Below, piece by piece: positions 9,823-57,535 of a DNA stretch of 64,000 nt. The notes below the pieces were generated by a model. The model was given only the letters and a program-made list of their open reading frames with translations, was not told the DNA's origin and searched no databases. This DNA is from an uncultured Gemmatimonadota bacterium (GTDB taxonomy: Bacteria; JAAXHH01): contig OX638340.1 in the NCBI GenBank assembly GCA_951812955.1, positions 2,912,001 through 2,976,000 of the forward strand, in the 5' to 3' direction. Position 1 is the first letter of the stretch; each line of letters opens with the position of its first letter. A program made the translations under genes and the position numbers.

Positions 9823-10914
9823 ATGTCCGAGCAGGTCCAGATTGCCCCGGCGCCGGAACCTGTCCCGCCGTCTCCCGCGCTGCCCGTACTGCAACCGGAC
9901 TCGGGCTATCTCGGGTACGACCGGGCGCTGTTGCGGCCCATGTCCCTCGGCACTAAGCTCCGAGCCTTGTTCAAGTACCTCTGGGTACGATTGAAGGGCG
10001 GACCGATGGCGGTGAACATGGAGGTGACCTATCTGTGCAACGCCACCTGCGATTTCTGTGATTACTGGAAGACGAAACGTTCAGGCAAGCTGGGCGATTA
10101 CGACTACATGGAGGCGCTCAGGAAGCTGAACCCCCTGACGGTCACGCTGACCGGCGGGGAACCCATGATCAACAAGCGACTGCCCGAGGCGGTCAGACGC
10201 ATCAAGGATGGCCTGGGATTCGTTTATATCGGCATGGTCACCCACGGATCTCTGCTGACCGTAGAAAAGGCCATGGCCCTGTGGGATGCCGGCGTGGACC
10301 ACATTTCGATCTCGTTGAACTATATCGGCCGCGAACATGACGAGGAACGGGGTATCGCGGGTTTGTACGAGCATATCTCCACGCTCGTTCCCCAGCTGAC
10401 GGCCCGAGGGGTCAACGTGATCTTCAACACGGTGATCATGCGTGAGAACCTGGACCACGTCGTACCCATCGCGCACCTGGCGCGTTCTATGGGCGCGAAG
10501 GTTTCCTACAGTTGCTACAGCGACTACAAGAATGGGAACGAAACCCACCTTGTGGATCCCGGTCACGAGGAGCAGTTGGAATCCGTGATCGAGGATCTGA
10601 TCTACCAGAAATCCCGATTGGGAAACATCGTCAATTCCGCCTGGTACTTGCGCCGGATCCCCGATTACTTCCAGGATGCGCTTCCAAGGTCCTGCACGGC
10701 AGCGGGCAAGTGGCTGGTGCAACTGACTCCCGACGGCAACGTAAAACCCTGTGCGGAACTGCCCGTAATGTCCGGGTATGCCGATTTCAAGCGGGTTTCA
10801 ACGAAGATCGACTGCAACCGGTGCTGGTACAGTTGCCGGGGTGAGACCGAATCTTCGTTGAAGCTTGTAAGGGTGCTGGAAGGCCTGGGCAGGGCCTGGC
10901 GCAGTAGCGCTTAA
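9823..10914 (+). CDS. Radical SAM enzyme with C-terminal Cys-rich (SPASM/twitch-like) region
   Basis: The CxxxCxxC cluster motif is CNATCDFCDYW, followed by the GGEP motif (LTGGEPMI). The C-terminal cysteines are C..(17)..PC and CNRCWYSC. Confidence 0.8.
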   Translation: MSEQVQIAPAPEPVPPSPALPVLQPDSGYLGYDRALLRPMSLGTKLRALFKYLWVRLKGGPMAVNMEVTYLCNATCDFCDYWKTKRSGKLGDYDYMEALRKLNPLTVTLTGGEPMINKRLPEAVRRIKDGLGFVYIGMVTHGSLLTVEKAMALWDAGVDHISISLNYIGREHDEERGIAGLYEHISTLVPQLTARGVNVIFNTVIMRENLDHVVPIAHLARSMGAKVSYSCYSDYKNGNETHLVDPGHEEQLESVIEDLIYQKSRLGNIVNSAWYLRRIPDYFQDALPRSCTAAGKWLVQLTPDGNVKPCAELPVMSGYADFKRVSTKIDCNRCWYSCRGETESSLKLVRVLEGLGRAWRSSA

Positions 10915-13900
10915 ACTACTACCGGCGCCAGTTCCCGGGCGAGGATCTTCCCGGTATGGGACAACAGGGACGCTGCGATATCCTCGGGCGTACCCGCGGC
11001 AACCACGTGACCGCCCCGGTCACCGCCTTCCGGACCTAGATCGACGATCCAGTCGGCCGTCTTGATGACGTCCAGGTTGTGTTCGATGACGAGCACGGTG
11101 TTCCCCTTGTCCACCAGCCTGTTGAGGACGTTCAGCAACTTGCGGATGTCGTCGAAGTGCAGCCCGGTGGTCGGCTCGTCCAGCAGGTAGACGGTCTTGC
11201 CGGTACCCGGCCGCGAGAGCTCCTTCGCCAGCTTGACGCGTTGCGCCTCGCCTCCCGAGAGCGTAATGGCCGACTGGCCGAGCTTGATGTAGTCGAGTCC
11301 CACGTCGTAAAGCGTCTGCAACATACGCCGGATGCGGGGCACGTTCTCGAAGTGCTCCAGGGCTTCGGCCACGGTCATCTCCAGCGTATCCGCGATCGTC
11401 TTACCCTTGTAGGTCACTTCCAGCGTCTCCTTCATGTAGCGCTTGCCGTCGCACACTTCGCAGGTCATCCACACGTCCGCCAGGAAATGCATCTCGATCT
11501 TGCGCACGCCGAGTCCCTGGCAGGCCTCGCACCGTCCAGCGGGCACGTTGAAGCTGAACCGTCGGGGTTCGTAGCCCCGCATCCGAGCCTCCACGGTCCG
11601 GGAGAAGAGCGACCGGATCGGCGCGAAGAGCCCGACGTAGGTGGATGGATCCGACCTGGGGGAATGGCCGATCGGGGTCTGGTCGATGTTTATGACCTTG
11701 TCCACGAACCGCAACCCCTTGATTTCATCGTGGGGTCCAGGGTTTACCTGGGCGCGGTGCAGGGTGGAGGCCAGCACAGGATGAAGGATGTCGTTGACGA
11801 GCGAGCTCTTTCCCGAACCGGACACCCCTGTGACGCAGATGAAAACGCCAAGGGGCAACGTCACGTCGATGTTCTTCAGGTTGTTCTGGCGCGCCCCGAG
11901 GATGCTAAGCCTGTTCCGGCCCGGCTTGCGGCGGTCCCGCGGCACTTCGATGCGAAGCCTGTTTCCCAGGTAACTGCCGGTGAGTGAAGTCTCGAGTTCC
12001 CTGAGGGCGGCGGGGGTGCCTTCGCCCACGATCCGGCCTCCGAACACCCCCGCTCCCGGTCCGAAATCCACCAGGTTGTCGGCATGCTCCAGCGTGTCGC
12101 GGTCGTGTTCGACCATGATCAGCGTATTGCCGAGATCGCGCAGGTTCTCCAGGGCATGGATCAGCCTGAGGTTGTCCCGCGGGTGAAGCCCGATCGTGGG
12201 TTCGTCCAGCACGTAGAGCACGCCGGTCAGCCCCGATCCGATCTGGCTGGCCAAACGGATTCGCTGTGCTTCGCCGCCCGATAGCGAGGGCGCCCGGCGG
12301 TCGAGGGTCAGGTATTCCAGCCCCACGTCGAGGAGGAAGCGCATGCGGTTTCTGATTTCCTTCATCACCTCGCCCACGACTTCCCGCTGCGGCGCCGAGA
12401 GTTTCAGGCCTTCGATGAAGTCCAGGGCACGGTCGGTGGACATGGCGCATAGCGCCGCAATGGACACGCCGTCGATCAGCACGGAAAGGCTTTCGGATCG
12501 GAGCCGTCCGCCTTCACATGCCGAGCAGGGCGTCGGCTGCAGGAGGCGGGCCAGTTCGGGAAAGCGGTTCGCGTAGCGGGCGACCAGTTCCACGGCCGGG
12601 AAGATGCCCCGGAACTGGAAGGACAGGCCGGGGACCCGTTGGTCCTCTATCCACCGGTCGCTGCCATAGAGCAACACCTGGAGCTGTTCTGCCGACAGCG
12701 CTTCAACGGGCGTCTCCAGGTTGAATCCCTGGGTGGACGCCACCAGTTCAAGCAGGTCGAGTATGGACCGTTCGCCCACCGTGCCTTCCTCCCAGATCGC
12801 AGCCGCGGCGTCCCTTATGGATTTCGAACGATCGGGAATCAACAGGTCGAGATCGATGCCGGGCTGGGTTCCGAGTCCCTCGCAATCGGGGCACATGCCC
12901 GCCCGGTGGTTGAATGAGAAGCTCTGGGGCGAGAGTTCGTCGTAACTGACTCCGCAGGCGGGACACGAATAGTACCGGCTGAAGCGGATATCGTGTGGAC
13001 CGGCGGAATCCGGTTCCTGCACCTCGGCGATCAGCAATCCCCCCGATAGGTCCAATGCCGTCTCCACCGAATCGGCCAGGCGCTGTCGGACGTCGCCCTG
13101 CATGACGATCCGGTCTACCACCACGCACAGTTCGTGGCGCCGCCGCCGGTCGATCTGAATGTCCTCTTCGAGCCGCCGCAACACGCCATCGATGCGTACC
13201 CGGATGAACCCGTTCCGGCGGGCCCTGTCCAGAAGGGCATCGTATCCCTCGGCGCCTTCGGGTTCCAGCGGCGCATGCAGCGTGGCGCGGGTCTGCTCCG
13301 GGAGGGTCATGATGCGGTCCACGATCTGGCTGGGCGTCTGCGCGCCGATGGGAACGCGGCAGGCGGGGCAGTGGGGCGCGCCGACCAGGGCGTAGAGTGC
13401 GCGCAGGTACTCGTAGATCTCCGTAATGGTGCCCACCGTGGAGCGTGGGTTCCGGCCCGGCGCCTTCTGTTCGATGGATATGGCCGGGGAAAGGCCGACG
13501 ATATGGTCCACCTTCGGCTTCTGCATCTGCTGGAGGAACTGGCGCGCGTAGGCTGAAAGGGATTCCACGTACCGTCTCTGGCCTTCCGCGTAGATCGTAT
13601 CGAGGGCCAGGGAAGTTTTCCCGGAGCCGGAAACGCCCGTGAACACGGTCATCCGGTCCCGGGGGACAGCCACGGTGAGGTCACGCAGGTTGTGCTCCCG
13701 CGCGCCGCGCACGGTGATCTCCCGTATGTGGCCGTCTCCTGCTGCGTCCTGCCTGACCGGTTTAGGAGCCACGGGGAGCGCCCGGGGCCGAAGCGCCTTC
13801 TCCAGGATCCGGCCCGTGGACGATCCGTCGACGCCCGCCACGGTCTCCGGCGTTCCCTCCGCGATGACGCGGCCGCCCGCGTCGCCGCCCTCCGGGCCCA

Positions 13901-16613
13901 GGTCGATGATCCAGTCGGCCGTCTTGATCACGTCGATGTTATGTTCGATGACAACGACGGTGTTGCCCTTGTCCACGAAGGCGTTCAGCACGGCGAGCAG
14001 ATGGGTGATGTCTTCGAAATGCAGGCCGGTCGTCGGTTCGTCCAGCACGTACATGGTCCGTCCCGTGCTTCGCTTGCACAGTTCACGGCCCAGCTTGATG
14101 CGCTGCGCCTCGCCCCCCGACAGCGTGGGCGCGGGCTGGCCCAGCTTGATATACCCCAGGCCTACGTCGTAGAGCGTCCTCAGCACCCGTGCGATGGACG
14201 GAACGTGCTCGAACAGTTCAAGCGCCTCCTGCACGTCCAGGTCGAGCACGTCGGCAATGGAGCGTCCCTTGTATTTCACCTCCAGGGTTTCCCGGTCGAA
14301 GCGCCTGCCTTCGCAAACGGGACAGGAGACCCACATATCCGCCAGGAAGTCCATCTCCACCCGCGTAGCCCCGTTGCCCTGGCAGGCTTCGCACCGGCCG
14401 CCCCGCACGTTGAAGCTGAACCGTCCCGGCCGGTAACCGCGCAACCTGGCTTCGGGGGTTTCGGCGAAGAGGGAGCGGATCGCGTCGAAGACCTTCGTGT
14501 AGGTTGCCGGATTCGATCTGGGCGTGCGGCCGATGGGGGCCTGGTCGATGTTGATCACCTTGTCCAGGTGCCCGACGCCCTTGAGGCCGTCATGTTCGCC
14601 CGGGTCCGTGCCGGCCTTGTTCAGCAGACGGGCCAGAGCCGCGTACAGGATGTCGTTGATCAGCGAGCTTTTACCGGAACCGGACACGCCCGTTACGCAC
14701 GTAAACCGTCCCACGGGCAGGCGCACGTCCAGGTTCTTGAGGTTGTTCTGACGGGCGCCCTGGATCATCAGCCACTTATCGGCCTCGCCGCGGCGCAAGG
14801 CCGGAATCGGGATCGTCTTCTTCCCGCACAGATACTGCCCGGTCAACGAAGCGGCGCTGGCTGCCACTATGCCGGGGCGGCCTTCGGCCACGATCTCGCC
14901 GCCGTTGACGCCGGCGCCCGGACCAAAATCCACGATGTGGTCGGAAGCCCACATGGTTTCTTCATCGTGCTCGACAATGATGACCGTATTGCCCTGGTCC
15001 CGCAACTGGCCCAGGGTATCCAAAAGCCGCCGGTTGTCCCTGGGATGCAGTCCGATACTCGGTTCGTCGAGCACGTACATCACGCCGACGAGCCCGCGGC
15101 CGATCTGGCTCGCGAGACGTATGCGCTGCGCCTCTCCGCCTGATAGCGTCGGCGCCGTGCGTTCCAGCGAAAGGTATTCGAGGCCCACGTTGAGGAGGAA
15201 GTCGAGCCGGGCGACTATTTCCTTGAGCGCTTCGTCGCCGATCTGGCGTTCGGCATCCGAAAGGGTCAGCTTCCGAAAGAAAGCGCGGATATCCAGTATC
15301 GGCAACCGGCACAGCGCGGCGATGGAGAGGCCGCCCAGGGTGACGGAAAGCGCTTCTGGCTTGAGGCGTTCTCCGCCGCAGCGATCGCATTGGCCTATGG
15401 CCATGTACCGTTCGATCTCGGTCTTGTGCCTGGGGGACTTGAGCGTATGGTACCGTTTTTCTAGGTCGGGAACGACCCCGTTGAACCGGTCCTTGTGCGA
15501 CCACTCGCCGCCCTTCCCGTTGTGGAAGGTGAAGGTGATTCGCTTGTATCCCAGGCCGTACAGCACCACCTTCCGCGCCTCTTCGTCCAACCGTTCCCAT
15601 GGCGTGTCCAGGCTGAAACCCACGTGTTGGGCTATCCCCTCGAAAAAGTGCCGTTTCCACTGGTTGGCGATGGTGCCGAGGGGTTCGATCGCCCCTTCGT
15701 TAATGGACTTCGCCGGATCGGGAATGATGAGCCTGGGTTCGATCCGCATCATGGTGCCCAGGCCGTGACAGTTCGGGCACATGCCCTGGGGGCTGTTGAA
15801 GGAGAACAGTTGCGGCGTGGGCTCCTCGTAACTCAGGTCACACGCGTTGCAGGCGTACCGCGTGCTGAAGAGCAGATCAGAAGTCCGGCCGTCCCCCTCC
15901 ATCTGGACCAACACGGAACCCTGGCTCAGGTGCAACGCGCCTTCCACCGCCTCGACCAGGCGGGTGCGGATGTCCTCCCGCACGACGAGCCTATCCGTCA
16001 CCACTTCGATCGTGTGCCGCATGTTTCGGTCCAGATCCGGATCCTCGGAGAGGTTGACGACGTCGCCGTTCACCCGGGCGCGCAGGTAGCCCTGCCGGCG
16101 CAGGTCCTCGAAGAGGTCCCGGTATTCGCCGCGGCGCCCCTGGATGACCGGCGCCAGTACGAGCAGCCGCGTTCCTTCGGGAAGCGCCAGGATCCGCGCG
16201 ACGATCTGTTCGAGGGTCTGCGCCCCTATCGACCCACCGCATTTCATGCAGTGAGGCGCCCCTACCCGGGCATACAGCACGCGCAGGAAGTCGTAGATCT
16301 CCGTGATCGTCCCGACGGTGGAACGGGGGTTCAGCCCGGCGGTTTTCTGTTCGATGGAGATGGCGGGCGCCAGTCCCGTGATCCGGTCGACGTCGGGTTT
16401 CTGCATCTGGCCGAGGAACTGTCTCGCGTAGGCCGATAGGGATTCGACGTAGCGCCGCTGGCCCTCCGCGTAAAGGGTATCGAAAGCCAGCGAAGACTTG
16501 CCGGATCCGGATACGCCGGTGAAGCAGATCAGTGCGTCTTTCGGCAGATCCAGGCTCACGTTCTTCAGGTTGTGAACGCGGGCCCCTTTGATTTGTATGG
16601 ATGTTGCGGCCAT
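10911..16613 (-). CDS. uvrA: Tandem-fused double UvrA (two complete excinuclease ABC subunit A units in one polypeptide)
   Basis: Four Walker A motifs (GVSGSGK[ST]S), four ABC signatures (LSGGEAQR) and four Walker B motifs (Y[VL]LDEP[ST]xGLH) are present. Zn-module cysteines occur in both halves. Each half is about 940 aa and collinear with canonical UvrA. The halves are joined by the linker RPRALPVAPKPVRQDAAGDGH (about 13728-13790). I chose the start at MAATSIQIKGARVHNL rather than the track start at 16667. Confidence 0.9.
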   Translation of the reverse strand: MAATSIQIKGARVHNLKNVSLDLPKDALICFTGVSGSGKSSLAFDTLYAEGQRRYVESLSAYARQFLGQMQKPDVDRITGLAPAISIEQKTAGLNPRSTVGTITEIYDFLRVLYARVGAPHCMKCGGSIGAQTLEQIVARILALPEGTRLLVLAPVIQGRRGEYRDLFEDLRRQGYLRARVNGDVVNLSEDPDLDRNMRHTIEVVTDRLVVREDIRTRLVEAVEGALHLSQGSVLVQMEGDGRTSDLLFSTRYACNACDLSYEEPTPQLFSFNSPQGMCPNCHGLGTMMRIEPRLIIPDPAKSINEGAIEPLGTIANQWKRHFFEGIAQHVGFSLDTPWERLDEEARKVVLYGLGYKRITFTFHNGKGGEWSHKDRFNGVVPDLEKRYHTLKSPRHKTEIERYMAIGQCDRCGGERLKPEALSVTLGGLSIAALCRLPILDIRAFFRKLTLSDAERQIGDEALKEIVARLDFLLNVGLEYLSLERTAPTLSGGEAQRIRLASQIGRGLVGVMYVLDEPSIGLHPRDNRRLLDTLGQLRDQGNTVIIVEHDEETMWASDHIVDFGPGAGVNGGEIVAEGRPGIVAASAASLTGQYLCGKKTIPIPALRRGEADKWLMIQGARQNNLKNLDVRLPVGRFTCVTGVSGSGKSSLINDILYAALARLLNKAGTDPGEHDGLKGVGHLDKVINIDQAPIGRTPRSNPATYTKVFDAIRSLFAETPEARLRGYRPGRFSFNVRGGRCEACQGNGATRVEMDFLADMWVSCPVCEGRRFDRETLEVKYKGRSIADVLDLDVQEALELFEHVPSIARVLRTLYDVGLGYIKLGQPAPTLSGGEAQRIKLGRELCKRSTGRTMYVLDEPTTGLHFEDITHLLAVLNAFVDKGNTVVVIEHNIDVIKTADWIIDLGPEGGDAGGRVIAEGTPETVAGVDGSSTGRILEKALRPRALPVAPKPVRQDAAGDGHIREITVRGAREHNLRDLTVAVPRDRMTVFTGVSGSGKTSLALDTIYAEGQRRYVESLSAYARQFLQQMQKPKVDHIVGLSPAISIEQKAPGRNPRSTVGTITEIYEYLRALYALVGAPHCPACRVPIGAQTPSQIVDRIMTLPEQTRATLHAPLEPEGAEGYDALLDRARRNGFIRVRIDGVLRRLEEDIQIDRRRRHELCVVVDRIVMQGDVRQRLADSVETALDLSGGLLIAEVQEPDSAGPHDIRFSRYYSCPACGVSYDELSPQSFSFNHRAGMCPDCEGLGTQPGIDLDLLIPDRSKSIRDAAAAIWEEGTVGERSILDLLELVASTQGFNLETPVEALSAEQLQVLLYGSDRWIEDQRVPGLSFQFRGIFPAVELVARYANRFPELARLLQPTPCSACEGGRLRSESLSVLIDGVSIAALCAMSTDRALDFIEGLKLSAPQREVVGEVMKEIRNRMRFLLDVGLEYLTLDRRAPSLSGGEAQRIRLASQIGSGLTGVLYVLDEPTIGLHPRDNLRLIHALENLRDLGNTLIMVEHDRDTLEHADNLVDFGPGAGVFGGRIVGEGTPAALRELETSLTGSYLGNRLRIEVPRDRRKPGRNRLSILGARQNNLKNIDVTLPLGVFICVTGVSGSGKSSLVNDILHPVLASTLHRAQVNPGPHDEIKGLRFVDKVINIDQTPIGHSPRSDPSTYVGLFAPIRSLFSRTVEARMRGYEPRRFSFNVPAGRCEACQGLGVRKIEMHFLADVWMTCEVCDGKRYMKETLEVTYKGKTIADTLEMTVAEALEHFENVPRIRRMLQTLYDVGLDYIKLGQSAITLSGGEAQRVKLAKELSRPGTGKTVYLLDEPTTGLHFDDIRKLLNVLNRLVDKGNTVLVIEHNLDVIKTADWIVDLGPEGGDRGGHVVAAGTPEDIAASLLSHTGKILARELAPVVV

Positions 16614-16844
16614 GGGAATCAAGCCGGATTCAGCGGGTCGTTGGATCAGGGCGAACGGCGGCGGCACAGCAAGCGAAAGATGCTATACGGGTGTTTAGAA
16701 ATCAAGGTATTTTCAAGGTGGACCGTGAATGGCGGAAAAGACGCTTGTTCTATGCCGTTACCGGAGTTAACGTGGTGTCGGCCGGTCCATCAGAATGCGG
16801 CGCGCCGGCCCGCCGCAGCCGATGTCGGAAACGGGACGATCATC

Positions 16845-28796: not shown

Positions 28797-31700
28797 TCAG
28801 AAGCTCATGCGAGCCAGCAGGCCGATTCGGTGATCGGACGCGCTGCCATGCCGCTCGAGTCGCATACCGGAGAGTTCCAGGGATGCGCCGCTGGCGCGAG
28901 AACCCGATTGGGAGAGTCTGGCGCCCAGCCGCATCCGCCGCCGGTCGTCTCCGAGGAGATACATTTCGCCGAAAGGCGTCATCAACATGCCAATGGACGG
29001 ATACGCGAGCCCGTAACCGACCTCGGCCTTGAACGCACGGGTGTTGTCCCGGCCGTTCACGGATGTACCGGCAAGCGGTCTGTCACGCCACATCATGCCC
29101 GAGTCTCCCGTACCGGCGCCAATACGCGGCGCGATGGACATGGATAGACCGGTCCCGCCCGCACCGGGATTGAGGTAGGCGGCAACGGAGAACCCGTTTT
29201 CGCTGTATCCATCGGCGGTGTGCACCGCCAGGAACCTGCCCTGCGCGTTTACGCCCACCCGGCCGCCTGACAGGCGCAAGCCTCCCGAGACCTCCAGACC
29301 CTGGCCCGTCTGGCCGGTGCCGCCGTCATAACGTCCGGCAACCTGGGCATAGGGCGTGATCGTGGTTCCGCCGGCAAGCGTCGACGTACGTGACCCTTCC
29401 AGGCCGATCCGGACCCGCTGCACGTCGCTTTCGATGTCGCTCAACGACGGGGATTCGCTGTCGGCGGTCGAAAGACGCAACAGGCCGGCGTCCCCGATTA
29501 CATCGAGACCCGTGCCGCCCGTCCCCGCCACCCGCATGCGCGTGCCCACCATGGCCATGCGCATGGAGAGATCGCTCGCAGCATCCTCCACATCGACTTC
29601 GCCGGTGCCGAGACCCACAATCGACCACACTTCCGTAAGACAGGTGCTGCTTGCCCATCGCAGGTATGGCAGCACACTGGTAAGGCGCGATTCCAGGCTG
29701 CCGCTCGCGACCGTTACGTCGTAATCGGACTGGCCCGCCGCGTGCGAAAGGGCAATACCCGCCATCCAGTTGCGCTCCGTGGCCACATCAAAACCGACGT
29801 AAGCCGTCTTCATGTCGCCATCGTAGCTGGTATTCACGTCGGGTTCGCCCTGGAAGTTCTGCAAATCGCCGGCGCCCCAGACAGACCATCGGAGACCTCC
29901 GTTGGCCGTGCCATCCTCCAGCGCGTACGAGAACGAACTCGTGCTCAACAGGTATCCGCTGTTAACGTAGCGCCGGTTTTCGCCGTCGTTCAACAGCGCC
30001 AGGTGTTTCGCCGAAACCTGGCGTCCGTGGCCGGTAAGTCTGGCCAGGGCCGCCACACTGGACGCGAATCCGTCTATCCTGCGACCTCCCACGGTGAATC
30101 CCTGTCCGCCCGTTCCATCGGAGAAGCGGCCGCCGATCGTTGAGGAGACGCTGGACAGCATGTTCCGGCCCATGGCGCTCAGGATGTTCTCGTAGACCAT
30201 CCGTTCCGCCGCGATGGCCGTAACCGTCACGCCGACGGTAAGGCTGGCCTCGCCGGCCGCGTTCCGGGCGGTGACCGTCACTGTGGCGGAACCCTTGCGA
30301 ACGCCTGTTACGGTCAGCGTGGCCGCCGACATAACGGCCGTTGCCACGCTGTTATCGGATGTGGACGCGGTTAAACTCAGATCTGTACCGCTGAACAGCG
30401 CACCCGCGTTGATTGTCTCGCTTTCACCCGAGTCCAGTGATACCGAAGGCGGACTGCCCACGATTGCCGGGGCATCGTAGGAGTCGGTTATTGTGACCGT
30501 CGCGGAATCCAGGTCCTGGCCATCGTAACTCGCCGTGACGATGATCGTCTCTCCTCCGGACTCGTACACATCGTCGTTGATGACCGTGATGGCAAGCTCG
30601 GAAGAACCTTCCGTGGCCTCGCCTGGAATCGTAATACTCAGGTTGCCACGGACGCTGTAGTCATCGCTGCTGGCCGTACCGGATAGCGCAAGCGGGATTA
30701 CCGTCGTGATCGGTATGGCCCCGCTCGTCTGCGTCGCCGTCACGTTCACGGTCTGCGTACCGCCGTCTTCGGACACAGCCTCGGGGGTAACAGAAAGCGT
30801 AATCTCCGGGACGTAGCCGGTCAGATCGAAATAGAATCCTGACCCGATTACGAGTTCCGTCCCGTCGACCATGACGGTTTCCGTGTAACTCACCTTGGGC
30901 GAGCCCGTATCTTCGTCGCCGTCCACAGCCGGGTTGTCGAAGTAATACTCTACATAACCTCCCCCGGCCTGCGCTGCCGCGATAAGCTCACGAGTGTAAT
31001 AGACCCCATTCAGGTCCTGGTCATCGAAAATGTTCATGTTCTCGATCGATGGGTTGGCACCGTTGAAAACGAGCAGGCCGTCTGTTTGCAGGAAAAAAAT
31101 GTAGATCTCACCCAGCCGCCAGTTTCCGTCCTCGACCCGGAAGGCCTCGACGACGTCACTGTGAAGATCGAATCCCACTTCATCGATGGCGCCTTTGTAG
31201 GCTGCTTTGGCCGCCTGGACAAATGACCTGAGGCTTGCCCGGTCCATCACGTCCGCCGCGGTTACGTCTCCAACAGGAAGAGGAGGTACGAGAACGTCCA
31301 GCACCGTGATCGTCGACGACCCGATATCCTCTCCCTCGTAAGTGGCCTTAACCACGATGGTCTCGCCGTCTTCCTCGGCTACGTCGTCGATCACATCGAA
31401 GGTAAGCGTCGTGGAAGCCGACGTGGCATCCCTTGGAATGATGATTTCGAGCGTTCCGTCCGAGGTATAGTCATCGCTTGTGGCCGTACCCTCGAGTGTC
31501 AGGTCGATGATCGTAGCCACCGGCACCGGGTCGTCGGTGAGCGTGGCCGTCACGGTCACCTCCTGGCCGTCTTCGCCTTCGACGAGGGTTTCACGGTCCA
31601 CCTCCAATGTGATCGCCGGGACGTCGTCCACGGGTCTTCGGTAAAAACCGGCGCCCACGACGAAGGTCTGGCCGGGATAAAAATCCGGATATTCAATAGT

Positions 31701-34700
31701 CTCAGCGTAACTCACCTTGGGCGAACCGAGCTCTTCGTCTCCCATGACCGACGGGTCGTCATAGTGGTACTCGACAAATCCACCGCCCCCAATCGCGACG
31801 TTGATGAGGTCTTCAATGAAGCGCTTGCCGTTCAAGTCTTCCAGGTCGATCCGAATGGCGCCTTCCTGCGTTATGTCCGCCCCGTGGAAGAACACGAACC
31901 CTTGCGTTGTCAGGACGAACAGGTAGATGGCGCCTTCCCTGAACGGTCCTCCTTCTTCCCTCAATGCGGCTTTCAGCCTCCCGACCTCCACGCCGCGCGT
32001 TTCGAAGGCCTCAAAAGTCCAGTCTACGGTGCCTCGCACGAAGGCCTTCAGCGTTTCCTTGTCCACCACGTCCTGCGCACGCACAGCTGGCGGATCCGGA
32101 AGCGTGACTTCTGAAACAGCATCGGGGATATCCATGTTGAAGCCGCCTACCAGGATGAAATCACCCACGCCGAACCCGGATGCGTACGAAGTGGCGTAGG
32201 CCACGCGGTTGGGATCGTCATTGGGATCGTTCGGATCATCCCAGGTGAATTCGACGAAACCCCCTCCTGAATTGGCCGCCGCGAGGATCTTCTGAACGAC
32301 TTTTTCTCCTTTGTCGTCTTCCAGGTCGCTAATGTCAATGCCGTCGCGGGTCGGGTCGTCGCCGTGGAAGAACATCTCGCCTGCAATCGTCAGGACCGAA
32401 AGGTACAGGTCTCCTTGTTTCCAATCGCCTTCGGAACGGAACGCGACACCCAGGGCCGGGAGTTCGTTGGCGTCGGTAATGCGTTCCAGGGAATCGGCCA
32501 CAGTTTCGACAAATCCCTTCAGCGTCTCGCGGTCTACTACTTCGCTGGCCACGATCGTTGTTTTTTCCTTCACCGTGATCGTCGCCGACCCGATATCCTC
32601 TCCCTCGTAAGTGGCCTTAACCACGATGGTCTCATTGGCGCCGTCGATCACATCATCCACCACGTCGAAGGTGAGCGTGGTGGAAGCCGCGGTGGCATTC
32701 CTTGGGATAATGACCTCCAGCGTTCCTTCCACGGTGTAGTCATCGGAAGTGGCCGTACCGTCAAGAGACAGGTTGATGATCGTCGCCACCGGCACCGGGT
32801 CATCGGTCAGCGTGGCAGTTACCGTCACTTCCTGGCCGTCACGGCCTTCGACTACGGATTCCGGATCCACGGCCAGCGTGATCTCCGGTACGTCGTCCAC
32901 AGGTCTTCGGTAGAAGCCTGCGCCTACGACGAAGGTCTGCCCGGGATAATAATGCGGGAATTCAACCGTTTCGGCATAACTCACCTTGGGCGAACCCAGC
33001 TCTTCATCACCCATAACCGAAGGATCGTCATAGAAGTACTCGACAAAACCACCACCTGCTACCGCGGTATTTATGAGATCTTCGATAAAGCGCTTGCCGT
33101 TCAGGTCTTCGAGATCGATCCGGATCGCACCTTCCTGCGTCATGTCCGCCCCGTGAAAGAACACGTACCCATTCGTTGTAAGAATAAACAGGTAGATGGA
33201 GCCTTCTCTAAATGGTCCGTCTTCTTGCCTCAAAACGGCTGTCAGTGTCCCGGCCTCGACACCATGCGTCTCGAAAGCGGTAAAGGACCATTCGATCGCG
33301 CTTTTCACGAAAGCCTTAAGACTCTCCTTGTCCACCACGTCCCGTGCCTGGACAGCGGGCAAATCGGGCAGCATACCCTCTTCCGGATCGGGAATGTCCA
33401 TGTTGAAGCCGCCCACCAGGATGAAATCACCCGACCCAACAAAACCGGATGTATATCGGACCGCGTAAGCCAGCCGGTTCGGATCATCATTGGGATCATT
33501 CGGATCATCCCAGGCAAAATCTACGAACGCTCCCTCGGCGTCCGCTGAGATGATATCCTGAACTACTTTATTGGCGTTGTCGTCTTCCACATCGCTTATA
33601 TCGAACCCGTCCCGGGTGGGATCGTCACCGTGGAAAATCAATACGCCTTCAGGGGTGAGCACCGAAAGGTACAGGTCTTCATGTTTCCAATCGCCTTCTT
33701 CTCGGAGGACACCCCACAATCGAGGGACCTCGTTGATATCGGTAACCCGTTCGAGAGAATCCGCCACCATGTCGACGAATGCCTTCAATGTCACATCATC
33801 CTCCACGTCAGCGGCCGTAATACGTCCAGTAGCGTCAAGAATCGACAGCGTGTCGGCCGCCACTTCCTCCAGGTCGTGGTTGGCAGTGACGATGATGGTT
33901 TCGCCGTCCGCTTCCGCTACTTCGTTGTCCGCCACGTCGAACGTCAGTTCCGTGGTCCCTTCCGTCATCTCGGCGGGTATCGTGACGACCATCTCGCCGG
34001 TTACTGTGTAGTCGGTGTTCTCCACGGCCGTGCCCGACAGGGTCAGCGGCATTCGAACCGATACGGGCAATGCACCATCGGCCCGGGTTTGCGTAGCCGT
34101 CACGGTCACGGTCGCGGTCTCGCCCTCGGTCAACACATCGGGGTCTGCGGCCAGCTCGATCGTACCCACATGATCTTCAAGTTCGTCGAAGTATAAACCG
34201 GAGCCAATGATGTAATCGTTGCCATGAAACACAAACTCTTCGGCGTAGCTCAACTTCGGCGAACCGGTATCTTCGTCTCCCATGACATCCGGATCGTCAT
34301 AGTGATATTCGACAAAACCGCCACCTGCCTGTGCCGCGGCGATGAGATCCTGGATGAAGTACTTCCCGTTTACGTCCTGTTCATCCCATGCAGACATGTT
34401 CTGCAGGCTGGCGTTGGCTCCATGGAAGAACCAGTCTCCCTCGGTGGTCAAAACGAACAGGTAGGTGTGTTCGTGCCTCCAGGGGCTGCCTTCCTGCCTG
34501 AAAATATCCAGGTTCGCTGACAAGATGTCGAAACCGTATTGTTCGAGGGCTGTCTGGTAAGTGGTGATGGATCCCTCTACGAACTTTACGAGGGTACCCC
34601 GGTCCATCACCTCGGAAGCCGTGACCTCCGGGTGGGGAAGCTCATCCGGATTTATCGTGGGTGTGGGAGGGCTCGAACCGGAAAGATTCTGGCGGAATCC

Positions 34701-35240
34701 GCCGACCATGATCACCTTCTGTCCGGTTATACCTGAAGTGTAGCTCACGGCATAGGCAGTTTTAGCGGTATCTTCGTCCCCCTGCTCGTCCGGATCATCC
34801 CAGTAGTAATCGACGAAGTCGCCACCCTCCACGTCCGCGGCCGTTAAGAGCGCTTGCACCACCTTTGTGCCCATCGCATCTTCGACATCAGAGATATTTG
34901 CTGTATTTACCGAGTGGTCATTGGCATGAAGCCATACAATACCGCCCGGCAAAAGGATGATGAGGAAGGTGGTGCCGTCATTCCAGTCTTCCTCGTCGCT
35001 GATTTTGTGGATCCATCCGCTGATATCGTTCGGATTGGTAACCGCTTCCGCATCGGCCTTCGCATACAGCACGAACTGCTTGAGGGTCGCGTCGTCCATT
35101 ACCTGGCCGGCCGTAATCGGTTCGACCTGGGCAGCAGCCGGCCCTGCTCCAATGAGTAGGCTTACCACACCCATCATTACCCCTAAAACCAGAGTTGATA
35201 ACATCAATCTATCAGAAATAGAGGAACTCATAATTGGCAT
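28797..35240 (-). CDS. Giant surface protein: 7 Cache-like + 4 Calx-beta-like modules, a Big_2 domain and an autotransporter beta-barrel
   Basis: There is a Sec signal (...LLIGAGPAAAQ). Modules of about 140 aa repeat with YLFVLTTxGxxFFHGA ... DxNGKxFIxDLIxxAxxGGGFVEYxYDDP ... SPKxSYAE ... VGxGFY, the single-Cache pattern. The Calx-beta-like pattern is VTVTATxT...LxGTAxxxDYT...TLTFDVxDDxxxExxETIVV. The Big_2-like region is SDNSVATAV...TVTGVRKGSATVTVTARN (about 30214-30480). The C-terminal barrel (about 28797-30200) ends ...LLARMSF. Confidence 0.85.
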   Translation of the reverse strand: MPIMSSSISDRLMLSTLVLGVMMGVVSLLIGAGPAAAQVEPITAGQVMDDATLKQFVLYAKADAEAVTNPNDISGWIHKISDEEDWNDGTTFLIILLPGGIVWLHANDHSVNTANISDVEDAMGTKVVQALLTAADVEGGDFVDYYWDDPDEQGDEDTAKTAYAVSYTSGITGQKVIMVGGFRQNLSGSSPPTPTINPDELPHPEVTASEVMDRGTLVKFVEGSITTYQTALEQYGFDILSANLDIFRQEGSPWRHEHTYLFVLTTEGDWFFHGANASLQNMSAWDEQDVNGKYFIQDLIAAAQAGGGFVEYHYDDPDVMGDEDTGSPKLSYAEEFVFHGNDYIIGSGLYFDELEDHVGTIELAADPDVLTEGETATVTVTATQTRADGALPVSVRMPLTLSGTAVENTDYTVTGEMVVTIPAEMTEGTTELTFDVADNEVAEADGETIIVTANHDLEEVAADTLSILDATGRITAADVEDDVTLKAFVDMVADSLERVTDINEVPRLWGVLREEGDWKHEDLYLSVLTPEGVLIFHGDDPTRDGFDISDVEDDNANKVVQDIISADAEGAFVDFAWDDPNDPNDDPNRLAYAVRYTSGFVGSGDFILVGGFNMDIPDPEEGMLPDLPAVQARDVVDKESLKAFVKSAIEWSFTAFETHGVEAGTLTAVLRQEDGPFREGSIYLFILTTNGYVFFHGADMTQEGAIRIDLEDLNGKRFIEDLINTAVAGGGFVEYFYDDPSVMGDEELGSPKVSYAETVEFPHYYPGQTFVVGAGFYRRPVDDVPEITLAVDPESVVEGRDGQEVTVTATLTDDPVPVATIINLSLDGTATSDDYTVEGTLEVIIPRNATAASTTLTFDVVDDVIDGANETIVVKATYEGEDIGSATITVKEKTTIVASEVVDRETLKGFVETVADSLERITDANELPALGVAFRSEGDWKQGDLYLSVLTIAGEMFFHGDDPTRDGIDISDLEDDKGEKVVQKILAAANSGGGFVEFTWDDPNDPNDDPNRVAYATSYASGFGVGDFILVGGFNMDIPDAVSEVTLPDPPAVRAQDVVDKETLKAFVRGTVDWTFEAFETRGVEVGRLKAALREEGGPFREGAIYLFVLTTQGFVFFHGADITQEGAIRIDLEDLNGKRFIEDLINVAIGGGGFVEYHYDDPSVMGDEELGSPKVSYAETIEYPDFYPGQTFVVGAGFYRRPVDDVPAITLEVDRETLVEGEDGQEVTVTATLTDDPVPVATIIDLTLEGTATSDDYTSDGTLEIIIPRDATSASTTLTFDVIDDVAEEDGETIVVKATYEGEDIGSSTITVLDVLVPPLPVGDVTAADVMDRASLRSFVQAAKAAYKGAIDEVGFDLHSDVVEAFRVEDGNWRLGEIYIFFLQTDGLLVFNGANPSIENMNIFDDQDLNGVYYTRELIAAAQAGGGYVEYYFDNPAVDGDEDTGSPKVSYTETVMVDGTELVIGSGFYFDLTGYVPEITLSVTPEAVSEDGGTQTVNVTATQTSGAIPITTVIPLALSGTASSDDYSVRGNLSITIPGEATEGSSELAITVINDDVYESGGETIIVTASYDGQDLDSATVTITDSYDAPAIVGSPPSVSLDSGESETINAGALFSGTDLSLTASTSDNSVATAVMSAATLTVTGVRKGSATVTVTARNAAGEASLTVGVTVTAIAAERMVYENILSAMGRNMLSSVSSTIGGRFSDGTGGQGFTVGGRRIDGFASSVAALARLTGHGRQVSAKHLALLNDGENRRYVNSGYLLSTSSFSYALEDGTANGGLRWSVWGAGDLQNFQGEPDVNTSYDGDMKTAYVGFDVATERNWMAGIALSHAAGQSDYDVTVASGSLESRLTSVLPYLRWASSTCLTEVWSIVGLGTGEVDVEDAASDLSMRMAMVGTRMRVAGTGGTGLDVIGDAGLLRLSTADSESPSLSDIESDVQRVRIGLEGSRTSTLAGGTTITPYAQVAGRYDGGTGQTGQGLEVSGGLRLSGGRVGVNAQGRFLAVHTADGYSENGFSVAAYLNPGAGGTGLSMSIAPRIGAGTGDSGMMWRDRPLAGTSVNGRDNTRAFKAEVGYGLAYPSIGMLMTPFGEMYLLGDDRRRMRLGARLSQSGSRASGASLELSGMRLERHGSASDHRIGLLARMSF
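31302..33794 (-). repeat. Intragenic tandem duplication, period 1269 bp (423 codons)
   Basis: Copy A spans about 31302-32525 and copy B about 32571-33794. They are collinear at an exact 1269-nt offset. For example, CACCGTGATCGTCG[A/C]CGACCCGATATCCTCTCCCTCGTAAGTGGCCTTAACCACGATGGTCTC occurs at 31302 and 32571. Each copy encodes Cache-A, Cache-B and Calx-beta. Confidence 0.85.
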
Positions 35241-53914: not shown

Positions 53915-56900
53915 ATGAGTGAAATCGTTACATACCTTGGTGGAAAGACGCTGCTGATTACCGGCGCCACGGGATTCCTCGCGAAAGCGGTCGTGGAAAA
54001 GATCCTGCGGTGCGCGCCGGAGGTCGGCCGCGTATACCTTGTCGTCAGGCCCCGCCGCAAGAAGGACGGCACTACGCTGTCGGCGGCGGAGCGCGTGGAG
54101 GATGAAATACTCCAGTCCGCCGCTTTCGCCCGTTTGCGCGAGATGCACGGCGACCGATTCGCACCATTCATGGCGGAGAAGGTTCATGCTGTCGAGGGGG
54201 ATCTGACCCTGGACCACCTGGGATTGGAGCCGGAACTGTACCGGCTTCTTTCCGAAGAGGTCAATGTCGTAATGACCTGTGCCGCTTCCGTTACCTTCGA
54301 CGAAGAAATCGACGCCGCCCTGCAGCTGAACGCTCTGGGCGCCAGGCGGATGATGGAATTCGCCAGAACGTGCAACCGCGCCATACTCGTCCACGTATCC
54401 ACGGCCTATGTCAATGGCCAGCTCAAGGGGCGCATCCCGGAAGTTCCACCACGGCCGGACTGGTCCATGGCCCAGGAAATGGGGATCAGCGACGCGCCAT
54501 TCGACCTGGAAAAGGAAATCCGGGGTATTTTGGCGAGGGCCGAAGAAATCCATGTTGCGTCACGATCGGCTGTCCAGCAGAAACGGTTCCGTAGGTCAGC
54601 CCTTCAACAGAACGCGCGGCCCACGCAGCGCTGGCTTGACGCCCAGATGGAGACCTTCCGTAAACGCTGGCTGAAGGAACAGCTTATCGAAGAAGGGATG
54701 CGCCGGGGACAGCAGTGGGGCTGGCACGACAGCTACACCTTGACGAAGGCCATGGGCGAACAACTGATCGTCAAGCATCGGGGCGAACTGCCCACGGTCA
54801 TCATTCGTCCGTCCATCGTGGAAAGCAGTCTCGTCGAGCCGGAACCGGGATGGATAGAAGGGCTCAAGGTCGCCGACCCGCTGATCGACGCGGTGAGCAA
54901 GGGCCGCCTGCCGGATTTTCCCGGCGATAAGGACATGATCGTGGACATCATCCCGGTGGACATGGTGGTAAACTCCATGCTGGCCGCCATGGAGCACACG
55001 GTCCGGGAGGGCGGAATCAGCGTGTACCACGTGTCTACGGGCGACCGGAATCCAATCCGATTCCAACAGGCCTTCGAACTTTCCTACGAGTACTTCCTGC
55101 AGCATCCACGCCTGAACCGGAACAACGAACCCATACCCATCCGGCGCTGGACCTATCCGACCCTCGCCCAGTTCAGACGGCGGTACAACCTGCGCTACGT
55201 CTATCCACTGAACACCGCGCTCTGGGTGTTCAACCGCTTCAGCCGCATCACCTTCCTGAATAACTGGAAGCGCAGAATAACCGTGCTGAAATCGGCGATC
55301 TCCCGCATGCTCTACTACGCTTCGATCTACAGTCCCTACACGTCCCTGGAATGCACCTTCGAAACCGGTCGGACGGTCGGCCTGCACGAACGGCTCGGGC
55401 CCGATGACCGGCTGCTGTTCAACGGCGACGTATCCAGAATACAATGGAAGACCTACTTCCAGGATATTCATATTCCAGGGTTGAAGCGCCACGTGTTGAA
55501 GACCGACGAACCCAGGCCCACGGTTACAGAAGAGGAGGAGGTTGCGGAGCGGTCGGGGTTTACCCAGGCGGAGGATGACCCCCTGCCCCACCTCGACACG
55601 TTGACGGATATATTGGCCAAGAGCGCGGATATGTACGGAGACAAGACCGCGATGCAGATGGAGCGTGAGGGGGTATGGGTCCGGTATTCTTTCAAGGACG
55701 TGCACGACCTGGCCGGCCACATGGGCTGGCAATGGCGGTCCGGCGGGCTGCACCCGGGCGACCGCGTCCTGCTGTTTTCGGAAAACAAGCCCGAATGGGG
55801 GATCGCCTGTTTTGCGGGTCTGGTGGCCGGAGCGGTGATCGTGCCCGTAGACCGGCGGTCATCGGCGCAGGAAGTGTGGCGCATTGCCCGGTTCACCGGT
55901 TCGAAGGCTGTCCTGTGTTCGGAAAGCGGTTTCGAGATGCTGAAAGCCTCGGAAGCACCGGACCTGGAGGTCGCTTTCTGGAATATCGACAACTACGGCC
56001 TCCCTTTCGATGCCTCGCGGCCGTCGGCGTCGCCGGTCGCCTTGAACGAGGAACCGCCCGCCTGGGCGCCGGTTCAACCCGATGCGCCGGCCGCCATCAT
56101 GTTTACACGGGGCATGGCTGCGGAGTCGCACGGCGTGGTGCTGTCCCATCGGAATTTCGTATCGAACCTGCTGTCTCTTGCCGAGATTCTGCGCGCCTAC
56201 CGGACCGACCATTTCCTCTCTCTGCTGCCCATGAGCCAGGCCCTCGAGTTCACCGGGGGATTCCTCATGCCCTTCTACGCGGGAGCGACCATTACCTATA
56301 CCGCTTCGGTACGTCCTCGATCCCTGGTCGCCCTGATGGTTGAATCCGAAATCAACTGCCTGATCGCGGCGCCCCGGATTTTCGGACTGATGCACCGGCC
56401 GCTGCAGCGTGCGGCCCGTGAATCGGATACGGACGTGGTTTCCCGCATGCGACTGCTGGTCAGCGGCGGCGGTACGCTCGCGTCGGATCTCTACCACGCC
56501 TACCGCGATTTCGGCCTCACCATACACGAGGGATACGGGCTCACGGAAGCGGCGCCGGTCGTGGCCGTGAACCCCATGGACCGAAGCAAACCGTCCTCCG
56601 TCGGCATCGCCCTTCCGGAGGTCGACGTGCGTATCGCAAATCCCGATGAGGATGGGAAGGGAGAAATCGTCGTGCGCGGGTCGAACGTCATGCTGGGATA
56701 TTTCGAGAACCCGTCGGCGACGGAGCATCGCATCCGCGACGGCTGGCTTCACACGGGGGACATCGGTTACATCGACCGGGACGGCTACTTGTACATCGCC
56801 GACCGCATGGAGCGCAGCCGCGGATCGAAGGATGTACCGGATGGTCGTCCGGGGAACGGCAAGTCCCGCAGCGCCACCGCCTTCTTCGACGTGGACGGAA

Positions 56901-57535
56901 CCATCGTCGACGCCACGATCGTACACTACTACGCCTTTTACAGGACCTGGGGTTATTCCGTTCCGAAGCGTCTGCTTTGGACCCTGGGCTTTCTGCCGAA
57001 GGTCGTCTATTACATGGTGCTGGACAAAATCAGCAGAAGCCGTTTCAACCAGGTCTTCTACAGGCAATACCGGGGATTCGAGCGCGGCGAGTGCGTATCC
57101 CGCAGCGAACGCCTCTTCAACGAAGTCATGCGGCCGCGCATGTTCACCGGCGCCGTCGAACGCATTCGGGAGCATCAGCAAAGAGGCGAGCGCGTGGTCC
57201 TGGTCACCGGATCCCTCGATTTTATCGTGGAACCCCTCGCGGAGTACACCAAGGCCGACGATCTCATCGCCCTGTCCATGAAGGAGGAGAACGGCCGGCT
57301 GACGGGAGAGCCGGAAGGGCCGCCGATCGGCGACGAGGAGAAGGCCCGTATCGTCCGGGATTACGCCGAACGGCGCGGCATCGACCTGGACCGAAGTTAC
57401 GCCTATGCCGACAGCAGATCGGACCGGCCCATGCTGGACCTGGTGGGACACGCCGTCGTGGTGAACCCGGGCGGGAAACTCAGAAAGGCTGCGGAAGCCG
57501 GCGGCTGGGAAGTCGTTAGCTGGACCCACGTATGA
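53915..57535 (+). CDS. Three-domain fusion: fatty acyl-CoA reductase (NAD_binding_4 + sterile domain), truncated adenylate-forming (ANL) domain, HAD-IB phosphatase
   Basis: The reductase part has LITGATGFLAK, YTLTKAMGE (YxxxK), and a C-terminal sterile-domain pattern ending ...WKTYFQDIHIPGLKRHVL. The ANL part (about 55590-56820) has GYGLTEA, GEIVVRGSNVMLGYF and WLHTGDIGYIDRDGYLYIADR. Its P-loop reads MFTRGMAAESHG and nothing follows the hinge. The HAD part (about 56875-57532) has FFDVDGT, VTGS and YADSRSD. Confidence 0.85.
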   Translation: MSEIVTYLGGKTLLITGATGFLAKAVVEKILRCAPEVGRVYLVVRPRRKKDGTTLSAAERVEDEILQSAAFARLREMHGDRFAPFMAEKVHAVEGDLTLDHLGLEPELYRLLSEEVNVVMTCAASVTFDEEIDAALQLNALGARRMMEFARTCNRAILVHVSTAYVNGQLKGRIPEVPPRPDWSMAQEMGISDAPFDLEKEIRGILARAEEIHVASRSAVQQKRFRRSALQQNARPTQRWLDAQMETFRKRWLKEQLIEEGMRRGQQWGWHDSYTLTKAMGEQLIVKHRGELPTVIIRPSIVESSLVEPEPGWIEGLKVADPLIDAVSKGRLPDFPGDKDMIVDIIPVDMVVNSMLAAMEHTVREGGISVYHVSTGDRNPIRFQQAFELSYEYFLQHPRLNRNNEPIPIRRWTYPTLAQFRRRYNLRYVYPLNTALWVFNRFSRITFLNNWKRRITVLKSAISRMLYYASIYSPYTSLECTFETGRTVGLHERLGPDDRLLFNGDVSRIQWKTYFQDIHIPGLKRHVLKTDEPRPTVTEEEEVAERSGFTQAEDDPLPHLDTLTDILAKSADMYGDKTAMQMEREGVWVRYSFKDVHDLAGHMGWQWRSGGLHPGDRVLLFSENKPEWGIACFAGLVAGAVIVPVDRRSSAQEVWRIARFTGSKAVLCSESGFEMLKASEAPDLEVAFWNIDNYGLPFDASRPSASPVALNEEPPAWAPVQPDAPAAIMFTRGMAAESHGVVLSHRNFVSNLLSLAEILRAYRTDHFLSLLPMSQALEFTGGFLMPFYAGATITYTASVRPRSLVALMVESEINCLIAAPRIFGLMHRPLQRAARESDTDVVSRMRLLVSGGGTLASDLYHAYRDFGLTIHEGYGLTEAAPVVAVNPMDRSKPSSVGIALPEVDVRIANPDEDGKGEIVVRGSNVMLGYFENPSATEHRIRDGWLHTGDIGYIDRDGYLYIADRMERSRGSKDVPDGRPGNGKSRSATAFFDVDGTIVDATIVHYYAFYRTWGYSVPKRLLWTLGFLPKVVYYMVLDKISRSRFNQVFYRQYRGFERGECVSRSERLFNEVMRPRMFTGAVERIREHQQRGERVVLVTGSLDFIVEPLAEYTKADDLIALSMKEENGRLTGEPEGPPIGDEEKARIVRDYAERRGIDLDRSYAYADSRSDRPMLDLVGHAVVVNPGGKLRKAAEAGGWEVVSWTHV

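Follow-up and report, generated by a model that had tools for sequence, protein, structure and literature searches.

Canonical class I UvrA consists of chains of about 940 aa that act as a homodimer. In a 64,000 nt stretch of DNA from an uncultured Gemmatimonadota bacterium (contig OX638340.1, positions 2,912,001 to 2,976,000; the whole stretch is referred to here as the window), a single gene encodes a UvrA-like protein of double length. This raises the question whether two UvrA units have really been joined in one chain, whether both of them are still UvrA, and how they might act together. Of several possible explanations, we favour, as the probable one, a UvrA damage sensor of nucleotide excision repair that is built as a single-chain, asymmetric pseudo-dimer. 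The reading rests on comparisons of the protein with its fused and unfused relatives.

A double-length UvrA gene and its relatives

The open reading frame (ORF) extends from 10911 to 16667 on the minus strand as a single uninterrupted frame, coding for 1918 aa when counted from the first GTG. The ATG at 16613 is taken as the likely start because its context (CCCATGGCC) is conserved in three of four aligned close relatives (loci L003, L004 and L017), which gives a protein of 1900 aa and 208.8 kDa. Its two halves, called N unit and C unit below, are collinear and share 56% identity over 950 columns. The original prediction, made from the letters of the window, had described one ORF of about 1900 aa with two full UvrA halves and a Pro/Ala-rich linker of 21 aa between them (Table 1). 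The ORF, the scores of both halves against a UvrA profile and their collinear alignment bear this out, and every element of that description of the sequence is correct.

The gene is far from unique. The cluster nearest to it at 90% identity has 23 members from independent assemblies, including contigs of 2.5–3.9 Mb, some of them 3.85–3.92 Mb long; the full-length members have 1898–1918 aa, and three are truncated fragments of 1122–1521 aa. Among 5.8 billion proteins, nearly all of the 120 best hits have 1880–2350 aa, with 99–100% coverage and 50–98% identity (one, P0039, is a 1229 aa fragment). Where named, these are annotated as “excinuclease ABC subunit UvrA” and come from metagenome-assembled genomes (MAGs) of Gemmatimonadota, Latescibacterota, Armatimonadota and Planctomycetota, the taxon names here and below being those assigned by the MAG depositors. 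With one genome taken per GTDB species, double-length loci occur, among the matches listed, in MAGs named Latescibacterota (90% identity), Zixibacteria, Poribacteria, Verrucomicrobia, Pirellulaceae, Planctomycetaceae and Gemmataceae. At least 135 complete homologues have the double-UvrA architecture. In a filter-free HMMER search of 1.84 billion representatives at 50% identity, fused UvrAs of 1550–2340 aa account for more than 100 of the best 150 hits. Fused UvrAs are thus a known kind of protein, of which public databases already contain many annotated examples, and the rarity implied by the original prediction has to be given up, as the architecture is routine in several phyla.

A double-length UvrA has even been modelled as a family of its own. 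NF001885/PRK00635 (“excinuclease ABC subunit A”, a model of 1809 positions), which we take to be the chlamydial UvrA of about 1786 aa, is of double length like the window protein and shows that fused UvrAs are curated in annotation resources. Membership of the window protein in this family was rejected: its score of 1399.3 bits is short of the cut-off of 3054, which five other fused representatives likewise fail to reach. A search of the full-text literature retrieved no paper characterising a fused or duplicated UvrA. Further UvrA classes, including duplicated forms, are defined in reviews, which lay outside that search.

The 135 complete fused proteins were cut into their units and aligned with 63 single UvrAs. 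In the neighbour-joining tree, the N units, the C units and the single UvrAs each form a clade with 100/100 bootstrap support. For the same pairs of proteins, distances between N units and distances between C units are tightly correlated (r = 0.966, slope 1.20), which argues that the two halves have been inherited together and that the C unit evolves faster, at about 1.2 times the rate of the N unit (some 20% faster). The separate N and C clades, together with this co-divergence, point to one old fusion within the window family. When divergent fused families are added to the neighbour-joining analysis, the support of the deep nodes drops to 22–57%, and both the sister status of N and C units and a single origin of all fusions are undecided at that depth; a single origin is therefore claimed for the window family only. 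Judged from these comparisons, the fusion is old and has been inherited as a unit, with purifying selection acting on both halves.

The tether between the units behaves differently from the units themselves. Its length in the 135 homologues is at least 18 aa, with a median of 23 aa and mostly 20–32 aa, and its sequence is unconserved and rich in A, R, G, P and K. It is constrained in length and unconstrained in sequence.

Class I identity of the units and the differences between them

Both units exceed the curated cut-off of 1147 bits of NF001503, the NCBIfam equivalog profile of UvrA (scores in Table 1), each of them spanning positions of about 3–941 out of 943. The same holds for the equivalog TIGR00630, with 1385.8 bits for the N unit and 1276 bits for the C unit (cut-off 729.8). 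Each unit is 52–56% identical to E. coli UvrA, and the best PDB matches of both are class I UvrAs over their full length: C. thermocellum UvrA (9gxk, 1221 bits) for the N unit, and G. stearothermophilus UvrA (2r6f, 1108 bits) for the C unit. Matches to the isolated UvrB/Mfd-interaction domains 4dfc_B and 3fpn_A were found for the N unit but not, at E ≤ 1e-20, for the C unit.

The motifs agree with the profiles. A motif scan found all four Walker A motifs intact (aa 33–40, 642–649, 993–1000 and 1596–1603), along with four LSGGE signatures, four LDEP Walker B motifs and four EH(D/N) H-loops, and in each unit 12 of the 12 ligand positions of the three zinc modules, one of which is the DNA-sensing zinc finger at the C-terminal end, are Cys, including the position of E. 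coli His123. These observations confirm what had been read from the window as regards ATP-binding motifs and zinc-module cysteines. The zinc-ligand positions are 90–100% conserved within the family. In E. coli numbering, which is used for all conserved residues below, K37, K646, the signatures, the Walker B motifs, the H-loops, G502, the wedge residue Y60 and the DNA-binding residues R712, R724 and R730 are conserved to about 100% in both units of 135 homologues. A degenerate ATP site, as found in heterodimeric ABC proteins, was considered and is ruled out, all four sites being intact family-wide. The residues that line the ATP-binding-I dimer interface in cryo-EM structures of C. thermocellum UvrA (Ct R54, Y55, S58, F66, G80, L81, P83, L507 and V510; PMC12796330) are invariant or nearly so in both units of the fused family.

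By every sequence test, both units are thus class I UvrA. They agree with the class I proteins of E. coli, G. stearothermophilus (2R6F, 3UWX), C. thermocellum (9GXK) and M. tuberculosis (3ZQJ) in the residues for catalysis, DNA binding, the dimer interface and the contact with UvrB. With class II UvrAs, represented by D. radiodurans UvrA2 (2VF7), Ecm16 (7SH1) and DrrC, both halves of the window protein have the tandem ABC core of UvrA type in common. Class II proteins lack the UvrB-binding domain (PMC3167621), and since this domain is present in both units, the window protein does not belong there. Nor is it a canonical class I protein, as in place of a chain of about 940 aa forming a non-covalent homodimer there is one chain of 1900 aa, with a tether of about 21 aa between two non-identical units. 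Within the class I family, it represents a fused variant.

The two units differ in a consistent manner. The double mutant R216A/E222A has defined the surface of E. coli UvrA that contacts UvrB (PMC3025350), and both residues are retained in both units of the window protein (Table 1). All 136 members of the window family have R216 in both units; E222 is present in 97% of the C units, and the N units have D or E at this position. The domain had been described as present in both halves and more diverged in the second, and this is indeed the case, both in its profile score (Pfam cut-off for PF17760, 23.3 bits) and in a loop where the N unit has VIQGRRGEY and the C unit LEPEGAEGY. Divergence here is not decay: conservation of the domain within the group is 0.49 for C units and 0.48 for single UvrAs, which argues that it is under selection in the C unit. 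A degenerate second UvrB-binding domain was considered and is unsupported in the window family.

With the contact residues in both units and a C-unit domain as well conserved as that of single UvrAs, the earlier suggestion that the protein might recruit only one UvrB is not borne out. In other families of fused UvrAs, R216 survives in one unit only in 36 of 81 cases, so that the suggestion applies to some relatives.

The loop, V-R-G-R-K-G-E at positions 155–161, differs between the units throughout the family. K159 and G160 occur in 63 of 63 single UvrAs. Of 136 proteins in the window family, 135 have retained the K159-G160 loop in their N unit, whereas all C units (135 of 135) have lost it and read E-P-x-x-x-E-G in its place. 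Position 72, inside the ATP-binding-I dimer-interface segment, follows the same trend: it is D in 100% of the single UvrAs and D or E in about 100% of the N units, as against K, R or H in 96% of the C units. The insertion domain of the C unit has a partial and much lower profile match (Pfam cut-off for PF17755, 23.2 bits), and it shares an identity of 0.32 with the single-UvrA consensus, as against 0.40 for the N unit. Within the C unit, this domain is more diverged than the UvrB-binding domain, a point missed by the original prediction. Compared with the 63 single UvrAs sampled, the C unit therefore stands out by lacking the invariant loop and D72 and by its diverged insertion domain.

Further changes are spread over the C unit family-wide. 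N195 is replaced by R, K/R226 by E or D, E375 by R or K, and R847 by P; position 749 has become R or K, the charges of E548 and R552 are swapped, and R384 and R695 are lost. The N unit has changes of its own, namely D or E at position 164 and in place of H754 and T792.

Table 1. Coordinates of the fused gene, its parts and its upstream element in the window.
Feature	Position	Strand	Basis
Fused double UvrA gene	10911..16613	-	stop codon 10911-10913, ATG 16613; NF001503 total 2756.5 bits in 2 stretches
N unit, complete canonical-looking class I UvrA, aa 1-941	13791..16613	-	NF001503 1439.8 bits
Inter-unit linker RPRALPVAPKPVRQDAAGDGH, 21 aa	13728..13790	-	4 Pro + 4 Ala
C unit, complete but faster-evolving UvrA unit, aa 963-1900	10914..13727	-	NF001503 1320.5 bits
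UvrB-binding domain, N unit, aa 132-238	15900..16220	-	PF17760 129.9 bits; R218/E224 present (R216/E222 of E. coli)
Basic loop VIQGRRGEY, N unit, aa 156-164	16122-16148	-	alignment
UvrB-binding domain, C unit, aa 1092-1199	13017..13340	-	PF17760 107.3 bits; R1178/E1184 retained (R216/E222 of E. coli)
Acidic loop LEPEGAEGY in place of basic loop, C unit, aa 1116-1124	13242-13268	-	alignment
Insertion (DNA-binding) domain, N unit	15408..15737	-	PF17755 110 bits, profile positions 2-110 of 110
Insertion (DNA-binding) domain, C unit, markedly diverged	12594..12854	-	PF17755 50.4 bits, partial, profile positions 1-91 of 110
KPKVD segment, C unit, D72 to K, inside ATP-binding-I dimer-interface segment	13506..13520	-	segment per PMC12796330
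KPDVD retained, N unit	16386-16400	-	counterpart of C-unit KPKVD
Invariant element of about 33 nt upstream of start, location approximate	16688..16720	-	identical in window and four relatives

Proposed pairing of the two units

In the mode of action that we favour, one polypeptide would supply both protomers of what is usually the UvrA2 homodimer, the N unit being followed by a flexible tether of about 21 aa and then by the C unit. The units would pair intramolecularly through their conserved ATP-binding-I surfaces, and the resulting pseudo-dimer would scan DNA, probe it by ATP-driven conformational changes and load UvrB as canonical UvrA2 does. Covalent linkage would make dimerisation independent of concentration, and it would fix a 1:1 “heterodimer”, so allowing the halves to specialise. 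In such a specialisation, the N unit would have stayed canonical, while the C unit would have given up the K159-G160 loop, exchanged D72 for K and allowed its insertion domain to degenerate, accompanied by changes in charge at positions 195, 226, 375, 548/552, 695, 749 and 847. As the C unit has changed and the N unit is canonical, the two sides that load UvrB are probably not equivalent. The covalently linked, asymmetric pseudo-dimer of the original prediction thus stands as regards the genuine fusion and the consistent non-equivalence of its units (in rate, loop, D72 and insertion domain); its intramolecular pairing is the part that we can only infer. The role in nucleotide excision repair and the functional meaning of the asymmetries are proposed on the same footing.

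Other fused UvrAs provide further information on the relation between the units. More than 100 clusters at 50% identity (1550–2340 aa) share with the window protein the head-to-tail order of two units, intact ATPase sites and short linkers, and, like it, they have the K159-G160 loop in one unit only. By alignment, only one of 217 fused proteins with two UvrB-binding domains has the loop in both units, and an alignment-free motif scan found none. Of 252 fused proteins, nearly all have retained the ATPase sites in each of their two units. Unlike many of the other fused UvrAs, the window family has lost the UvrB-binding domain and the insertion domain from neither unit. The pattern of the window protein, where the N unit has R216 and the loop and the C unit has R216 without the loop, occurs in 27 cases; the commonest pattern in other fused families (30 cases) is an N unit with R216 and without the loop, coupled to a C unit with the loop and without R216. 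In 42 of the clusters at 50% identity (for example P0124, P0130, P0141 and P0144), the C unit is without the insertion domain (E. coli 290–400), and the second unit is also without it in the Poribacteria loci L015 and L016. This loss is a more extreme form of the divergence seen in the C unit of the window protein.

Losses in related fused families are thus often complementary. This argues that the working particle consists of one N and one C unit, and that a UvrA “dimer” can do with a single copy of certain elements. Neither the regularity of one loop per fusion nor the complementary losses have, as far as checked, been described in the literature; both are computational observations. A more general idea, which is possible but which we hold only tentatively, is that fused UvrAs are obligately asymmetric, such that only one side of the dimer needs each of the loop, the R216 contact and the insertion domain. 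It is suggested by the loop, which is invariant in single UvrAs and essentially never present in both units of a fusion. If it were true, the sides of the window protein would differ in function, for example one loading UvrB and the other being regulatory or locking, or one serving UvrB and the other Mfd, and the protein would offer a natural means, within a single chain, of telling apart what the two protomers and the four ATP sites contribute.

The survey of fused UvrAs also brought up other variants. In five clusters, the situation is reversed and the insertion domain is absent from the N unit. In another 27 clusters (about 1590–1650 aa; for example P0220, P0233, P0236 and P0242), both units are without the UvrB-binding domain, so that these proteins resemble a doubled class II UvrA. 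About 29 fused UvrAs extend C-terminally beyond the second unit, by 340–385 aa in about 25 of them (P0029, P0075, P0031, P0034 and others, and loci L006, L008, L009 and L010); where named, they come from Planctomycetes, Gemmataceae or Armatimonadota. This extension is made up of two modules of about 170 aa in tandem, in which the motifs PWxxDGRxWH ... ELDTPxFRxFL recur, and in the planctomycete-named relatives it had no Pfam match.

Three points weigh against a single-chain pseudo-dimer active in repair. First, some of the charge changes specific for each unit (the loop at 155–164 as against positions 749/754 at the C-terminal zinc finger) would fit pairing of like units from two chains (N:N' and C:C') as well as pairing of N with C. 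Second, any role of the K159-G160 loop is putative, the sole lead being ligand-free M. tuberculosis UvrA, where the equivalent K160–D165 loop touches the opposing protomer beside the C-terminal zinc finger (PMC3167621). Third, uvrB and uvrC do not adjoin the gene in the window or at the related double-uvrA loci L002–L018, unlike in about 21 of 62 single-uvrA loci (L019–L081, among the matches listed), mostly named Firmicutes or Actinobacteria, which have uvrB directly upstream, several of them also with uvrC downstream.

The first of these points belongs to the best-surviving alternative, an assembly in which chains are swapped: two polypeptides would pair (N with N' and C with C', or N with C'), so forming a particle of four protomers with two DNA-binding grooves. 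Any such pairing is sterically conceivable, as both units keep the full canonical dimerisation surface. The charges can be read as self-complementary, since the N unit combines a basic loop with an acidic position 754 and the C unit an acidic loop with a basic position 749, an argument that assumes the loop to meet the opposing zinc-finger region as it does in the M. tuberculosis protein. However, the related families that have lost R216 from one unit and the K159-G160 loop from the other, or the insertion domain from just one unit, disfavour a C:C' pairing, because homotypic dimers would then lack a required element entirely. The tether, too, is short and has a narrow range of lengths, as expected for intramolecular closure. 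We therefore regard a chain-swapped assembly as rather unlikely.

Slightly less likely still is a specialised paralogue, which would coexist with an ordinary uvrA and have a side role, be it the clearing of DNA-bound intercalators or drugs in the manner of Ecm16 and DrrC, or a dedicated branch of transcription-coupled repair, with Mfd bound by one of the units. The location of the gene is consistent with such a role. A tblastn search with the E. coli proteins found no uvrB, uvrC or mfd in the 64 kb window, in agreement with the earlier statement that uvrB and uvrC are not nearby, and none was found in the flanks of 17 related double-uvrA loci (L002–L018, full-length matches, among the matches listed). 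The UvrB/Mfd-binding domain of the C unit differs at the surface positions 195 and 226 and in the loop, and some MAGs named Planctomycetia and Kiritimatiellia carry a single-length uvrA (L072 and L080, among the matches listed). The drug-resistance proteins of UvrA type, UvrA2 and Ecm16, are class II and have no UvrB-binding domain (PMC3167621), whereas both window units have this domain with R216 and E222 intact. Moreover, both units pass the equivalog profiles of UvrA, all motifs relevant to repair are under strong purifying selection in a family conserved over several phyla, and no biosynthetic or resistance genes flank the fused uvrA. The role outside canonical nucleotide excision repair that the original prediction had considered thus finds no positive support.

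It is extremely unlikely that two adjoining uvrA genes have been merged artificially, whether through loss of a stop codon, through a frameshift or through chimeric assembly, a possibility for which nothing speaks except that it had been raised beforehand and which is ruled out by the recurrence of the same uninterrupted ORF across independent assemblies (the 23 near-identical members, nearly all of the top 120 clusters, at 58–98% identity, and at least 17 genome loci), by the co-divergence of the N and C units, and by the junction between them, where neither a terminator nor a promoter consensus was found.

Surroundings of the gene and the value of fused UvrAs

The fused uvrA stands alone, with a radical-SAM gene converging on its 3' end and a gene for a GFO/IDH/MocA oxidoreductase diverging upstream. 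Ahead of the start codon lies an element of about 33 nt (AAAATACCTTGATTTCTAAACACnCGTATAGCA) that is identical in four relatives whose proteins are about 90% identical, while the flanks of the element vary. No sigma-70 consensus was found in this element or elsewhere upstream of the fused uvrA, nor was a terminator found there, and the element might serve as a promoter specific to the lineage or as an operator of the damage response.

Two other ORFs of the window were noted in passing. One, of 2147 aa (28797–35240, minus strand), has seven tandem Cache domains (sCache_2/dCache_2), a Big_2 domain and a weak match to an autotransporter beta-domain, which together make an unusual set of domains for a large protein of the surface or outer membrane. 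The other, of 1206 aa (53915–57535, plus strand), has a fatty-acyl reductase (NAD_binding_4 and Sterile), an AMP-binding adenylation domain and a HAD-like hydrolase in one chain.

In a homodimer, any mutation hits both protomers, and this has limited experiments on the four ATP sites and the two UvrB-binding domains of UvrA2. At stake are the questions of how UvrA2 uses its four ATP sites and how two UvrB-binding domains load one UvrB onto the damaged strand. The stoichiometry of UvrB has long been debated (PMC3458569). A covalent pseudo-dimer with diverged halves would permit mutagenesis of a single protomer.

For annotation, a uvrA of about 1900 aa has to be considered normal in these phyla, and it should neither be split nor flagged as an error. 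For the family as a whole, fused UvrAs represent a natural experiment, in which the ATPase sites are nearly always doubled while the K159-G160 loop appears to be needed just once, as may be the R216 contact or the insertion domain in some of the fused families.

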